Of a stretch of 8,509 nt of DNA, positions 2,839 to 8,509 are shown piece by piece. The notes under the pieces are model-generated. The model ran no database searches and was not told the DNA's origin. It was given only the letters and a program-made list of their open reading frames with translations. Source of the DNA: a virus (taxonomy: Duplodnaviria > Heunggongvirae > Uroviricota > Caudoviricetes); the IMG/VR virus record IMGVR_UViG_648276647_000011; one strand, written 5' to 3'. The position numbers were made by a program, and so were the translations under genes. The stretch's first letter is position 1; each line of letters begins with the position of its first letter.

Positions 2839-3138
2839 ATGTCTGAAAATCAGAATATCCGCAATATATACAAAAAAGAATACGCTGGTTTTTTCACGGA
2901 AGATTCCATTGAGAATCTTGAAGATGTAATAAATGTTATTGCACTCCTTTCAGCATTGACAGGTGAAATTAATACCAGTGAGAGAATGCCAGTGCAAATT
3001 AATGAAATGGAATCATTAACTAACATTCTTTATCGGGAATTACGAGCGATTAAGTCAGGAATGCATACTTCTGGCGGAATTTTTTCATGGCATAGTGCTG
3101 AAACCGCCGGGATTGCCAAAGCAATAAGTAACGAGTAA
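2839..3138 (+). CDS. hypothetical protein, 99 aa; AT-rich orphan gene immediately upstream of the primase
   Basis: ATG 2839 preceded by GGGGAG (2825-2830). Separated from the upstream operon by an AT-rich 67-bp spacer and followed by a hairpin terminator. Composition is clearly lower G+C than flanking genes. No recognisable motif. Confidence 0.6.
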   Translation: MSENQNIRNIYKKEYAGFFTEDSIENLEDVINVIALLSALTGEINTSERMPVQINEMESLTNILYRELRAIKSGMHTSGGIFSWHSAETAGIAKAISNE

Positions 3139-3186: not shown

Positions 3187-5856
3187 ATGAAATCTGACAT
3201 CAGAAAAGAGATTATTAACCGTCTTATCCGTGATTACAACTTCAAAGAAGAAAATAACTACCTCCGGTATGGTGTTTGTCCGCAATGTGGAAAGAAAGAG
3301 TTGTTTACCAGCCTTGAAAGGCCGTACATCGTACACTGTGGGCGCGAAAATAAATGCGGTACAGACCTGCTGACCAAAGAACTTTACCCGGATGTGTTTT
3401 CATCATGGTCAGATCGTTATATCAGCACGAAAGACGAGCCATATGCAGCGGCGGCAGCTTATCTTCAGGAAGCGCGCAATATTGCTGTGGGGCCACTGAA
3501 GGGCGCATTTACTCAGGAGCGATACCAGGACAAGGAAAACGGCGAACAGGCCGCTACTGTGCGTTTTACGCTGGCTGACGGCGTGTGGTGGGAGCGCATC
3601 ATAGACCGGCCGGAACGTTTCGCGCGTAAGGCGAATTTTTCCGGCAGCTACAAGGGGTTGTGGTGGGCTTATCCGGGAGCTGATTTAAGCAAGGCCAACG
3701 AAATCTGGATTTGTGAGGGCATCTTTGATGCCATCAGCCTTAACCAGAATGGCATTGCAGCCGTTTCTGTCATGTCTGCCGTGAATTATCCTGATAAGGC
3801 GCTGGAAGAACTGGCAAAGCTGTGCGGAGATAATCCCCGTCCGGTTATTGTGTGGGCGCTGGATAACGGGCGTGCGGGTGAGCGTTACGCGAAAAAACAT
3901 TCAGAACGCAGCGCCGAAGATGGCTGGAGAACGGCGGCGGCGTTACCGGGTAAAAACAGCAATAAACGCGACTGGAATGATTTACACGTCGCCGGAAAGC
4001 TGCGTGGCCATGATGTGAAAAGATACCGTCATTACGGTGATTTATTGCTGGCGAAATCTCCGAGAGATAAGGCGCTGATAATATTTTCCTTTCGTGAGCG
4101 GAAGGAATTTCATTTTACTTTTGATAACCGTGTTTTCTGGTTCAAACTGGACATTGAGCGCTATATGAAGGCTGTTGAGCGTGCCAAGAATGAGCGAAAT
4201 GTTGATGAGGATGAAGCGCGCAAAATTGCACTTAAGGAATCTGGTGCAGTAAAAGAAATCGCAAACTGTAACCCAGCGCCGCTTTATTACATTCGAAATA
4301 ATGACACGGATGAAGCATGGTATTACTTCCGTGTTACGTTCCCGGATGGTGCTACGGTGAAAAACACCTTTACATCAGGACAATTAACATCCTCATCTGA
4401 ATTTAAAAAACGCCTGTTACACGTGGCAAAAGGCGGTATTTATACTGGAACGACTACGCAGCTTGACGCATTAATAAAAAATGACCTTCCCGCAATAAAA
4501 GAGGTTATTGGTCAGGATTTTATCGGATACAACAAGGCGATTGGGGCATGGCTGTTTAATGATATTGCTGTTTACAAGGGAAAAACTTATGAAATCAATG
4601 ACGAGGATTATTTTGAAATTGATGGCATAAACGCAAAACCATTAAGCGAAAAACCCACATTACAGATTAACTACAAAAAACCGGATGAGTTTACAGAGTC
4701 TTGGGTGGAAGATCTCTGGCTGGCTTTTGGTGAAAAGGGAATTATTACCCTGGCTTTCTGGTTGGGCTCCCTGTTCAGCGAACAAATCCGAGATAAAGAA
4801 GAATCCTTCCCCTTCCTTGAAGTCACCGGGGAGCCCGGAACGGGTAAATCAACATTGATTGATTTTTGCTGGCGGTTGTGCGGTCGTGACAACTATGAAG
4901 GCGTTGATCCAACCAAAGGATCAGAGGCGGGCTGGAAGCGTACCTTTGGACAGGTCGCCGGATTACCTGTTGTTCTGATTGAAGCGGACCGGGGAGACAA
5001 TGCGCAAAAAAGAGGTGCGTTTGACTTCGATAACCTGAAAAGTCTCTATAACGGCGGTGGTATCGGCGTTCGTGGTGTTAAGGCCAACAATAACAACACC
5101 TATGACCCGGATTTTAAGGGCGCTATCGTGATTGCGCAGAATGCGCGGGTAAACGCCTCTCCGGCAATTATTGAGCGCCTGATACGTATATACACCGATA
5201 AAAAACGCCATTCACCTGATACCCGCCTGGCGGCGAGACGGCTGGAACTTTACCCCGTCGAGAAGGTATCTGGGTTTATTCACCGAGCGGTAAGTCAGGA
5301 ACGGGCGATTATGCAAACGTTCCTAGAAGTATCTCCAGCTGAAACGGAACGCCTTTGCGGATGCGAAAATATTCGCCATCCCCGCATCGCTAAAAATCAC
5401 GCACAACTTATCGCGCTGGTCAGAGCGCTGAAATGCGTTATTGATATCCCGGATGAATGGCTTGATGCCACATGTCTGGAACTGGAACAAATGGCAACAG
5501 CGCAGGTTAAAGCGGCGGCGGCTGATTTACCGGAAGTGATGGAGTTCTGGGAGGCGTTCGACTTCCTGGACGGCATAACAAAATACGGTGTAAACCACTA
5601 CGGCAAGGGATGCCGTGAGGGGATTGCTATCAGTATTCCGCAACTGGCACAGGCTGCCGCCATTCACCGCGTGGAGATCCGAACTGACCGCGAAATGATT
5701 GAGTTGCTCGGAGCCGGACGTTCCCGACCTTTGACAGGCCGCAAAACCATTCGTAGTGAGGTGTCCAGACAGGCAAACGCCGGAAGAGGGGTCGCCGAGG
5801 CCAGAGAGCCGGAAGTACTGAAATGCCGGATATTCAGTTACAAGGAGGGGCGCTAA
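3187..5856 (+). CDS. phage/plasmid primase-helicase of the P4 alpha type: N-terminal zinc ribbon, TOPRIM primase, P-loop NTPase (helicase)
   Basis: Long ORF. Cys cluster CPQCG...HCGRENKCG (nt 3277-3360). TOPRIM-like ICEGIFDA (nt 3709-3732) and LDNGRAGE. Walker A GEPGTGKST (nt 4828-4854). ATG 3187 with SD GGTGGAG (3172-3178) is preferred over the track GTG at 3163, which lies inside the terminator stem. Confidence 0.88.
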   Translation: MKSDIRKEIINRLIRDYNFKEENNYLRYGVCPQCGKKELFTSLERPYIVHCGRENKCGTDLLTKELYPDVFSSWSDRYISTKDEPYAAAAAYLQEARNIAVGPLKGAFTQERYQDKENGEQAATVRFTLADGVWWERIIDRPERFARKANFSGSYKGLWWAYPGADLSKANEIWICEGIFDAISLNQNGIAAVSVMSAVNYPDKALEELAKLCGDNPRPVIVWALDNGRAGERYAKKHSERSAEDGWRTAAALPGKNSNKRDWNDLHVAGKLRGHDVKRYRHYGDLLLAKSPRDKALIIFSFRERKEFHFTFDNRVFWFKLDIERYMKAVERAKNERNVDEDEARKIALKESGAVKEIANCNPAPLYYIRNNDTDEAWYYFRVTFPDGATVKNTFTSGQLTSSSEFKKRLLHVAKGGIYTGTTTQLDALIKNDLPAIKEVIGQDFIGYNKAIGAWLFNDIAVYKGKTYEINDEDYFEIDGINAKPLSEKPTLQINYKKPDEFTESWVEDLWLAFGEKGIITLAFWLGSLFSEQIRDKEESFPFLEVTGEPGTGKSTLIDFCWRLCGRDNYEGVDPTKGSEAGWKRTFGQVAGLPVVLIEADRGDNAQKRGAFDFDNLKSLYNGGGIGVRGVKANNNNTYDPDFKGAIVIAQNARVNASPAIIERLIRIYTDKKRHSPDTRLAARRLELYPVEKVSGFIHRAVSQERAIMQTFLEVSPAETERLCGCENIRHPRIAKNHAQLIALVRALKCVIDIPDEWLDATCLELEQMATAQVKAAAADLPEVMEFWEAFDFLDGITKYGVNHYGKGCREGIAISIPQLAQAAAIHRVEIRTDREMIELLGAGRSRPLTGRKTIRSEVSRQANAGRGVAEAREPEVLKCRIFSYKEGR

Positions 5857-5858
5857 AC

Positions 5859-6862
5859 ATGCCGATCAGAAAGATGCATGATGGGCGGTGGCTGCTCGAT
5901 ATCAGGCCATGCGGACGTAAAGGGAAGCGCATCAGAAGAATATTTGACAAAAAATCGATAGCTACAGCAACTGAACGGTACATCATAGCGAACGCCGAAA
6001 AGCGCGAGTTTATACAGGGCTATCGTGACCGGAGAACGCTTAGCGATTTACTGGAATTGTGGTGGGTCTATCACGGTCAGCACAGGCGAAAGGCAAACAC
6101 GGATAAACAGCAGCTTGGCAAAATTATTAATGAGCTTGGAGCTGACATGTTTGCGGTGGAACTCGACAAATTAAAAATCATTGCATGGCGATCGCAGAAA
6201 ATTGCAGAAGGATTAAAGCCGTCCTCAGCAAACAGATACATGAACAGATTATCGGGGATGTTTACAGCCCTGAAAAAGATCGGTTTGTGGGATGCAGAGC
6301 ATCCGGTTCGTGGTATTCCTGTTCTTTATGTAAAGCAGCGGGAAATGGCCTTTTTATCAAAAAACGAGGTCACATTGTTGCTTGACGGGCTGAATGGAGA
6401 TCAACGAAGGGTTGCGCTCTTGTGTCTTTGTACCGGAGCCCGCTGGAGTGAGGCCAGCAGATTGTATGGAGAGCAAATAGTTCATAACAGAATAACGTTT
6501 CTGGAAACCAAAAACGGTAGAAAAAGAACGGTGCCTGTGTCGCAGGAAATATGCGATGCCGTAAAAACAAAAGAAACCGGGCGACTGTTTGATGTGAAGT
6601 ACAGAGAGTTTTGCCGGGCATTAAAAAAATAAAACCCGATTTACCGAGGGGGCAGGCTGCGCATGTATTGCGGCATACATTCGCCAGTCACTTTGTGATG
6701 AACGGTGGCAACATTCTTGCGCTACAAAAAATCCTTGGGCATGCGACAATTCAGCAGACTATGGCATACGCACATTTTGCACCGGATTATCTGGCAGATG
6801 CCATGAGATTTAACCCGGTAGCCAACATAGTGATCACCGAAGAAAAAGAGCCAGCAGAGTAA
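5859..6862 (+). pseudogene. int: tyrosine integrase, P2 Int-like, interrupted by a single-base frameshift at an A7 run (6623-6629); may be a pseudogene, a sequencing error or a recoding site
   Basis: Two consecutive ORFs (frame 0 5859-6632; frame 2 6611-6862) that together align without gaps to recalled P2 integrase (e.g. KPSSANRYMNRLSGMFTAL, CTGARWSEASRL, IKPDLPRGQAAHVLRHTFASHF, QTMAYAHFAPDY). Box II HxxR and the presumed catalytic Tyr (nt 6767-6769) are only in the second frame. ATG 5859 lies 2 nt after the primase stop, with AGGAGGGG at 5843-5850. Confidence 0.85.
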
Positions 6863-7110: not shown

Positions 7111-7430
7111 GGGGGGGGATGCGCAAAGCGGTTACAACGGTTACAAATTTAAAATTGCTTATTTTTGTATTATATATCAATATATTATAACTGGTCCGAT
7201 GAGTTACAATAGCGGTTACAACGCGGTTACATGTAACCGTTTTGTTAGGTTACAGGCGGTTACAGGTTAAGTTTTTAATTGATTGATAATAAAGTGCTTT
7301 TTGAAACCTGTAACCGTTGTAACCGCAGTGTAACCGCAAAGCGGTTACAAACAATATCCATTAAAATCATGTTTTTAAGTGGTGTTTTTGACTGTTGTAA
7401 CCGTTGTAACCGCTTTGCGCACCCCCCACC
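7111..7430. repeat. iteron array (heptamer GGTTACA/TGTAACC, 13 exact copies plus 1 variant) bounded by 36-bp inverted repeats; putative replication origin
   Basis: Inverted repeats 7111-7146 and 7395-7430 are 34/36 identical as reverse complements. GGTTACA at 7130, 7139, 7214, 7225, 7248, 7258, 7343 and AGTTACA at 7202. TGTAACC at 7232, 7309, 7318, 7329, 7396, 7405. Perfect palindrome GGTTACATGTAACC at 7225-7238. Hairpin TGTAACCGC-AAA-GCGGTTACA at 7329-7349. AT-rich blocks at 7147-7200, 7265-7308 and 7350-7390. Confidence 0.6.
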
Positions 7431-7653
7431 GGATTATGAGGCAGAGCCCCAAAACAACTGGTCTAACCTATAACAAAAATGCAACATCAATCATTGATTT
7501 TTTGGGGCTGTCAGTCACGGGGAGTTGCCCTGTTGTTTGGCAGAAAAATGAAGTATGTACATGCGCGGCGGGGATGGTAAAAAACGTAATACACGCGGCG
7601 CAGTTGCCATAAAAAATTTCTCAAAAGCACTCTTTTTGACGCTATTGTTCATC

Positions 7654-7680
7654 TGCACAAAAGTGCACAAATTTGCACAA
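7654..7680. promoter_or_regulatory. three direct TGCACAA repeats at exact 10-bp phasing; candidate operator or activator-binding array
   Basis: TGCACAA at 7654-7660, 7664-7670 and 7674-7680, so one helical turn apart. A fourth copy lies at 7746-7752. A 10-bp perfect palindrome CCAGTACTGG sits nearby at 7711-7720. Confidence 0.4.
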
Positions 7681-7973
7681 TTTTTTAGAGTAACTTTTTG
7701 CCCATCCGGCCCAGTACTGGCGCGCCCGGAGGGCGATTTCGTGCGTGCACAAAAAACGGTGAGTTTTTCGCGCGCAGGTGACGGGGGAACAGCACGCGTT
7801 TCAGGGGGGTAAATTACATTTTCGCTAAAGACTGCGGGAATGCCCGACCGGGTTAGTTTTATCGCCAGCCAGAGCCGTTCTTACGGCAAGAGAGAACTGA
7901 TACGGGGAATGTGACGAGTGAGCATGGGAACGGTGCGCCTGTGCGTAATACGCGGCGACTGCTGCGGGTTTAT

Positions 7974-8036
7974 TTGATACGGCCAGAGGGGGCGGCAGAA
8001 GATATAATAGGTTAAATTTCACACCAGTAAGAGGAG
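7974..8036 (+). promoter_or_regulatory. putative promoter and RBS of the ogr-like gene
   Basis: Perfect -10 TATAAT at 8003-8008. The only -35-like hexamer, TTGATA (7974-7979), is 23 bp upstream, which is non-canonical. SD GAGGAG at 8031-8036, 6 nt before ATG 8043. Confidence 0.3.
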
Positions 8037-8042
8037 CGTGAT

Positions 8043-8225
8043 ATGTCTTTCCCTTGCCCGGCCTGTGGCGCTTCAGCCCGCACCCGTGGTCGTTCGTTGG
8101 AAGAACACGAACAAAACATCTACAGAACGTATTACCAGTGCAATAATATTGAGTGTGGGGCTTGTTTTTGTACGCTTGAGTCGTTTGTACGCATTACTAA
8201 GCGCAGGAAGTCGAAAACTTCATAG
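8043..8225 (+). CDS. ogr: Ogr/Delta-family zinc-finger transcription activator (P2 Ogr / P4 Delta-like), 60 aa, single domain
   Basis: ATG 8043 with strong SD. Cys4 pattern C5-X2-C8-X24-C33-X4-C38. ARTRGRS...YRTYYQCNNIEC...FCTLES resembles P2 Ogr (ARTSRYI...ERYHQCQNVNC...F.TYES) from memory. Confidence 0.8.
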   Translation: MSFPCPACGASARTRGRSLEEHEQNIYRTYYQCNNIECGACFCTLESFVRITKRRKSKTS

Positions 8226-8275: not shown

Positions 8276-8509
8276 TTACGTCGTGTGGTTCTGGTCATTT
8301 GCCCAGGCCCACACATCCCCCGCTACATTGCGCCCGTTGCGGTCTTCTTCCTGCGTTTCCCCGGCCTTAATTCCCTGACTGATAAACATTCTGACGCACT
8401 GGGAGTAGTTCATCTCTCTGTCCTCACATATCTGATTTATTTTATGGTCGATTTCGAGCGGAATACGAATACAGCGTAATACGCATCGCATTTTCTTTTG
8501 TTTTTTCAT
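8276..8509 (-). CDS. hypothetical small protein, 77 aa, possible ribbon-helix-helix (CopG/Arc-like) DNA-binding fold; start at or beyond the window edge
   Basis: Minus-strand ORF whose ATG is the last 3 bases of the window. RCIRIPLEIDHKINQICEDREMNYSQCVRMFISQGI fits a beta-strand/helix/helix pattern. Convergent with ogr. Preferred over the overlapping + strand ORF 8225-8479, which has odd composition and no RBS. Confidence 0.4.
   Translation of the reverse strand: MKKQKKMRCVLRCIRIPLEIDHKINQICEDREMNYSQCVRMFISQGIKAGETQEEDRNGRNVAGDVWAWANDQNHTT

Follow-up and report, generated by a model that had tools for sequence, protein, structure and literature searches.

The region at positions 7653-7820 of the window (the whole 8509-base stretch of viral DNA that was analyzed) is predicted from sequence comparison, with a probability of roughly 0.85, to be the cos-site recognition arm of an integrated satellite that is packaged by P88-type helpers of the P2 family. 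The repeat array in this region is probably read by the helper for DNA packaging, not for gene regulation. The features of the region include the following, with offsets counted from the predicted cosN:

7653-7820, no strand: whole cos block; no other stretch of the window resembles phage records at the DNA level
7654-7660, + strand: distal repeat 1 (TGCACAA) at -123; TGCAC is kept in helper-type phages, and prophages have a YGCAY peak at -124/-123
7664-7670, + strand: distal repeat 2 (TGCACAA) at -113; kept in helper-type phages, with a prophage peak at -113/-111
7674-7680, + strand: distal repeat 3 (TGCACAA) at -103; kept in helper-type phages, with a prophage peak at -103/-101
7681-7699, + strand: T-rich tract TTTTTTAGAGTAACTTTTT after the distal array; its T runs are at least 90% conserved in 84 unique phage segments and are found in all subgroups
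7711-7720, no strand: central dyad CCAGTACTGG at -66; a dyad is found at -64/-66 in 21 of 55 portal-anchored prophages
7746-7757, + strand: proximal TGCACAA (7746-7752) with an A run (TGCACAAAAAAC) at -31; kept in helper-type phages, with a YGCAY peak at -31/-29
7770-7776, + strand: GCGCGCA flank directly 5' of cosN; conserved in window-type and Klebsiella-type cos regions
7777-7795, + strand: predicted cosN GGTGACGGGGGAACAGCAC, a 19-nt cohesive end assigned by homology, with cut sites predicted to within a few bases
7796-7820, + strand: right cos flank, beginning GCGTTTCAGGGGGGTAAAT; the similarity to helper phages stops here

The window is approximately 98% identical to an island found in some 55 complete E. 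coli genomes and exemplified by E. coli JP538, where the island lies between gcd and hpt. The JP538 island encodes: (i) an integrase, a 350-aa protein, an AlpA-type regulator, an Icd-like protein, small ORFs, a Toprim primase-helicase and a second integrase, in this order, and (ii) after the cos block, an Ogr/Delta zinc-finger protein, a divergent 77-aa ORF, a 236-aa protein, a P2-family major capsid homologue and MazEF. This gene content is that of a phage satellite dependent on a P2-family helper. Neither sid nor psu is annotated in the JP538 island, and the only match found for att repeats of the element in JP538 is 12 bp in length and not convincing. The second tyrosine integrase is split in the window (5823-6862) into overlapping ORFs at 5823-6632 and 6611-6862, with the Int_N and Phage_integrase matches divided between the two; the JP538 counterpart is one intact 335-aa gene, and the window copy is a frameshifted pseudogene unless the split stems from a sequencing error.

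Two other parts of the satellite are of note in their own right. The capsid homologue is encoded just past the right end of the window (JP538 locus L003, 13877-15858) and is 423 aa in length, with a match to PF05125 (E = 2e-72) and phrog_70 that leaves approximately 120-130 N-terminal residues outside of the domain; it is preceded by the 236-aa protein, which has no family match, and followed by MazEF. For a satellite dependent on P2, to supply a capsid protein of its own would be unusual. Immediately beyond the genes for the primase and the second integrase, at the place occupied in P4 by the crr iterons, the sequence TGTAACCG forms a field. It occurs at 7129-7412 in twelve exact copies, some in each orientation (0.21 expected; 12 reached in 0 of 200 shuffles), and these copies partly form long inverted repeats (7111-7146 with 7395-7430). 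The field is probably the satellite origin or cis-replication region.

The predicted cos block in phage and bacterial genomes

TGCACAA occurs four times in the window, always on the + strand, as found by reading of the sequence and by exact search, and at no other place in the 8509 bases. The count alone is unremarkable (1.91 expected; at least four copies in 24 of 200 shuffles). The phased arrangement TGCACAA-N3-TGCACAA-N3-TGCACAA is matched in none of 200 dinucleotide-preserving shuffles, even with three mismatches allowed. The three heptamers at 10-bp spacing that were described in an earlier, sequence-only reading of the window are thus confirmed at all of their coordinates, and the fourth copy and the palindrome CCAGTACTGG of that reading are found where it had placed them. 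The palindrome is located within an imperfect inverted repeat (7700-7709 with 7726-7734).

When the whole window is compared to 50,697 phage records by megablast and blastn, only 7653-7820 finds matches (80-83% identity), and the matching records are P88-like phages of the P2 family (Peduoviridae; several placed in Xuanwuvirus). The match begins at the first heptamer, and the P88-like phages share CTGCACAAAAGTGCACAAATTTGCACAATTTTTT, the fourth copy as GTGCACAAAAAA and then GGTGACGGGGGAACAGCCC. The conservation per column in 84 unique phage segments is 30-50% up to the first TGCAC and rises abruptly to at least 90% exactly at its T. The block is also matched in 467 of 5426 complete E. coli genomes, with a start at 7653 or 7654 and an end mostly at 7814-7820. 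The sequence-only reading had proposed that TGCACAA arrays be sought in helper phages, and it is the presence of the same array in helper-type phages that identifies the site.

The genomic context of the block is consistent among the phages. In all nine annotated phage records, the block sits between the cargo genes on the gpA side and the 3' end of the portal gene. When IMG/VR was scanned for GTGCACAAATTTGCAC, 120 contigs were recovered, with a P2-like phage context in 113; in these contigs, GTGCACAAATTTGCAC is downstream of gpA and upstream of the portal and large terminase genes where these are on the contig, and the 3' end of the portal gene, where present, is typically 380-460 or 1030-1060 bases (approximate values) past GTGCACAAATTTGCAC. 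Satellites account for three of the 120 contigs, two of the family of the window and one that is distant. The cos signal of P2 lies in this same gap between the gpA side and the portal and is the only region common to P2 and P4 (PMC9122126). The P2 record has cosL at 1-19 and the portal gene Q at 187-1221.

The predicted cosN GGTGACGGGGGAACAGCAC is identical at 14 of 19 positions to the annotated cosL/cosR of P2 and the end of P4 (GGCGAGGCGGGGAAAGCAC) by direct comparison, and at 18 of 19 positions to the P88-like phages. The cut positions are placed at 7777-7795 because these bases align to the experimentally known cohesive ends of P2 and P4; the exact cut sites, as well as the protein that binds at cos, are predictions.

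The cos sites of P2 and P4 were described by Ziermann & Calendar 1990 (Gene 96:9, as cited in PMC9122126, PMC9594776, PMC5694545 and PMC3931495), and the literature recognizes a 55-bp core common to the two. The proximal copy with its A run (TGCACAAAAAAC) corresponds to TGCATTAAAA, the left edge of this shared core; the 55-bp core begins at the proximal copy, and the distal triple is outside of it. The minimal cos site of P2 is reportedly about 125 bp, a figure that is not used as evidence here. The cos region of the window resembles those of P2 and P4 in several respects: (i) the cohesive end is of 19 nt and G+C-rich, (ii) helper and satellite have no DNA in common other than cos, (iii) the helper cos is located between gpA-side cargo genes and the portal gene Q, and (iv) three phased words are found approximately 100-125 bases before cosN, with one copy and an A run approximately 30 bases before it. 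The positions of the words and dyads compare as follows:

Window (TGCACAA): distal words at -123, -113 and -103; dyad at -66; proximal word at -31
P2 (TGCAT): distal words at -123, -111 and -101; no clear dyad; proximal word at -29
P4 (TGCAT): distal words at -124, -111 and -101; imperfect dyad; proximal word at -29

By contrast, the word itself differs (TGCACAA compared to TGCAT), the distal words are spaced 10/10 in the window, 12/10 in P2 and 13/10 in P4, the window offsets are shifted by two bases, and cosN differs at 5 of 19 positions. The satellite of the window is, furthermore, not a close relative of P4: the similarity of its primase to P4 alpha is slight, and a P2-family capsid gene of its own is present.

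Two IMG/VR loci display variations on this arrangement. One (L120, of the IMGVR_UViG_2778261421... contig set; cos at approximately 3730-3900 of the locus) has a mosaic cos. The left half, with the repeats, dyad region and proximal copy, belongs to the E. coli P88 type and accompanies a gpA that is 90% identical, while the sequence from cosN onward differs (GGCGACGAGGGAAGGGCGC) and accompanies a portal that is 70% identical. This locus resembles a recombination junction at cosN, of the kind on which PMC9122126 speculates. The other (L116, approximately 2950-3100 in the orientation of the motif) is the distant satellite, with a primase 36% identical to that of the window. It has the TGCACAA triple and proximal copy at 0/10/20/91, while its cosN-like sequence and intervening DNA differ; thus, the same packaging word is present in a second satellite lineage.

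Of the 468 E. coli records that carry this cos type, only 16 have it more than once. Thus, most satellite-bearing genomes seem to be without a resident prophage of matching cos, and the helper presumably arrives by infection.

Repeat geometry and repeat words among P2-like prophages

To avoid selection by motif, P2-like prophages were anchored on the portal protein. The 80 loci were taken from one-genome-per-species contigs (Citrobacter, Serratia, Pantoea, Xenorhabdus, Photorhabdus, Morganella, Yersinia, Pectobacterium, Pandoraea, Collimonas, Variovorax and others), a cosN-like sequence was then located in each, and 55 unique loci were analyzed. The YGCAY starts of these loci cluster at -124/-123, -113/-111, -103/-101 and -31/-29. 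A 5-mer recurs at 9-12 bp spacing within -135 to -89 in 42 of the 55 loci, compared to 7/48 and 14/55 in displaced windows. The same 5-mer is found again within -52 to -19 in 31 of the loci (1/48 and 0/55 in displaced windows; mean of 0.24 and maximum of 3 in shuffles).

The central dyad recurs in the same set. CCAG-NN-CTGG, with at most one mismatch, is found at -64 or -66 in 21 of the 55 loci, with one match elsewhere in the 160 bases, and a G+C-rich dyad occupies this place in 34/55 loci compared to 3/48 in a control window displaced by 200 bases. Thus, the palindrome of the window is also a conserved cos element. The central dyad is common to lineages with different repeat words and has diverged in the P88-like phages of E. 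coli.

The distance from distal repeat 3 to the proximal copy is 72 bases, a value that is constant in helper-type phages despite the differing DNA between the two. The overall spacing of 0/10/20/92 is invariant across phage subgroups, while the intervening 60 bases are unrelated; thus, the geometry is also under selection. The words are kept at fixed, helically phased offsets, as if for one reader, and this finding upholds the earlier proposal that the repeats are protein sites on one face of the DNA.

The repeat word varies by lineage, with the distal and proximal copies changing together:

TGCACAA: the window and the P88 group
TGCAT(G/T): P2, P4 and many Enterobacterales
TCACAA/TGCACA: Xenorhabdus
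TGCGTCA, with TGCGTTAAAA: Collimonas
CCGTCA, with GGTCGGCA: Acidovorax and Variovorax

P2 and the P88-like phages share a host species and use different words, which argues for a phage-encoded reader and not a host factor. The satellite needs only packaging from its helper here and keeps exactly this block; thus, the terminase is the simplest reader of the words and the most likely one. By analogy with other cos phages, the small terminase subunit would be the probable part of the enzyme to read them, at odds somewhat better than even. This subunit is gpM (Pfam PF05944) in these phages and is 37% identical between P2 and a P88-like phage, a value that fits a different specificity and is uninformative alone; the portal proteins of P88-like phages and P2 are 45% identical. 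A search of the PDB found no gpM relative with a solved structure. A more tentative proposal, given slightly less than an even chance, is that the repeat word may serve as a packaging-compatibility code, in which one word is present in three distal copies (approximately -123/-112/-102) and one proximal copy (approximately -30) per cosN.

Alternative readers and functions considered for the array

In phage lambda, cosB has an R3-I1-R2-R1 arrangement with sites for the small terminase subunit gpNu1, and IHF is needed between the terminase sites. The array of the window is similar to lambda cosB in that several short repeated words reside beside the nicking site and are thought to position the terminase, with bent DNA in between. 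By contrast, the two have no sequence or protein homology (P2 gpM is of PF05944), the window words all have the same direction, and the window array is on the side that will form the mature genome's right end. An IHF-like site was not recognized in the cos region of the window.

In one alternative, the reader of the words is not the terminase, but a protein of the host (IHF, Fis or HU type) that bends DNA and would give the cos region its shape. The phased T/A tracts that follow the array are compatible with such a protein, as is the IHF requirement of lambda cosB, and the central dyad, being common to lineages with differing words, is an element that could have a common reader. For the words themselves, a host protein is an improbable reader, since P2 (TGCAT) and the P88-like phages (TGCACAA) differ within the same host species, all copies change together, and the heptamer is unlike the IHF consensus (WATCAANNNNTTR).

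A second alternative is that the array is a transcriptional operator for ogr, bound by the helper Cox or C protein, the satellite AlpA or the product of the 77-aa ORF. The 10-bp spacing of the three direct repeats, which places them on one face of the helix, would suit this role, and ogr is downstream on the same strand. A formal likeness is also found in P4, where three repeats of CACTTAAAG (9176-9205, annotated as 'ori type 2 repeat') have the same sense and an exact 10-bp spacing, as in arrays of the Cox/Apl/Xis type; these repeats are presumably the Cox boxes of P2 at the late promoter of P4. The P4 repeats, however, are at a promoter and are mirrored in the early switch and attP of the helper, whereas TGCACAA is mirrored only at cos. 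In phage vB_EcoM-569R5 (ON470599), the sole TGCAC cluster is at cos (23606/23616/23626 and 23698), with none in 12745-13712, which includes C and cox.

The surroundings of the array in the window also speak against an operator. No sigma-70-like promoter is detected in 7600-7760 on either strand. The sequence-only reading had assigned the array to the ogr upstream region, which is correct by position and not by function, as the Ogr/Delta zinc-finger ORF (Pfam PF04606) starts at 8043, approximately 360 bases past the array end at 7680 and approximately 290 bases after the fourth copy, with cosN and a terminator-like hairpin in between. The further proposal of an immunity or helper-sensing operator is not upheld, since no such promoter is found in 7600-7760, the phage copies of the block adjoin the portal module and not ogr, and the block has a match to cohesive ends. 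An operator at the array is thus very unlikely. The observation that the array differs from the TGT-N12-ACA dyads of the Ogr type stands, with no such dyad near ogr; the two found in the window, which were considered as late-promoter dyads, are at chance level and far from this gene.

A better candidate for the operator of ogr and the 77-aa ORF is an 11-bp palindrome, GCGTAATACGC, which is found in exact form at 7943-7953 and 8474-8484 and as a variant at 7584-7594. One exact copy precedes the ogr ATG by approximately 90 bases, and the divergent 77-aa ORF has the other exact copy at its 5' end. With up to two mismatches allowed, GCGTAATACGC has nine matches in comparison to 2.2 expected, and nine are reached in 0 of 200 shuffles. 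The terminator-like hairpin between cos and ogr, with its T run, is at 7951-7966 on the + strand. A perfect TATAAT is present at 8004-8009 with no recognizable -35 hexamer and no TGT-N12-ACA dyad nearby; a TATAAT of this type, without a -35, suggests that the ogr promoter is activator-dependent.

Still less likely is an intrinsic terminator or insulator, in which repeats 2 and 3 would pair as a hairpin (GTGCA-CAAATT-TGCAC) followed by a T run and halt transcription that comes from the adjacent genes before it crosses cos. A consensus scan does list this hairpin and T run for either strand, conservation extends to the T run, and the TGCAT words of P4 overlap a stronger hairpin after psu. The stem, however, has only five pairs and a predicted energy of -6.8 kcal/mol that is close to that of shuffled sequences (z = -0.57 on the + strand and -0.27 on the - strand). 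The folds of 7650-7695 and 7695-7745 are similarly no better than shuffles on both strands (z from -0.27 to -0.89). Repeat 1 and the proximal copy are outside of the hairpin and equally conserved, the sequence itself is conserved beyond pairing, and many phages have a separate and stronger hairpin, followed by a T run, immediately ahead of repeat 1.

Iterons of a replication origin for the satellite primase-helicase are the least likely of these readings, for although the short direct repeats have a helical spacing and are approximately 800 bases past the integrase ORF that follows the primase gene, the TGTAACCG field is a separate and much stronger set of repeats and the TGCACAA array is common to phages that replicate with an unrelated gpA.

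A coding function for the block was also considered and rejected. The ORF at 7555-7812 is annotated in E. coli JP538 (WP_000281924.1, 'hypothetical protein') and has no Pfam or PHROG match. Satellites and phages do not agree in the strand, frame and extent of the frames that are open across the block, and PGAP mostly annotates nothing at this place in the phage-type copies listed. The ORF across cos is probably a spurious gene call.

Proposed packaging mechanism and significance

The cos reading suggests the following series of events. Upon helper infection or induction, the satellite would excise and replicate as a circle. The packaging substrate of P2 and P4 is circular monomers (PMC2231350), unlike that of lambda. 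The helper terminase, composed of gpM (small subunit) and gpP (large subunit), would then recognize the four same-sense words on roughly one face of the helix. As the proximal copy is 72 bp (approximately seven turns) from the distal array, the DNA between the two may be bent or looped. The terminase would nick both strands at the predicted cosN to generate 19-nt 5' overhangs and would pump the satellite genome of approximately 12-13 kb into the capsid.

Satellites that carry the cos of their helper are textbook knowledge; thus, the finding is ordinary in kind. The fixed-offset triple outside of the core and the concerted switching of the words may go beyond the published '55-bp core'. A false lead is removed in that the array is no hidden ogr switch, and a functional landmark is gained, namely the expected place of cutting and packaging and, with it, the ends of the transduced genome. 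A probable mis-annotation, the 'hypothetical protein' across cos in RefSeq genomes, is flagged as well. The landmark also defines the probable helper group as P88-like members of the P2 family rather than P2 itself.

The fixed offsets and concerted words provide a testable hypothesis of how the terminases of P2-family phages distinguish their own and their satellites' DNA from any other. Should the small terminase subunit read the word, sequence alone could suffice to match satellites to helpers. If the compatibility code is true, this satellite would be restricted to helpers of the TGCACAA type (P88-like) and excluded from P2 itself. Possible uses include the prediction of helper-satellite pairs and the design of cosmids of the P2/P4 type.
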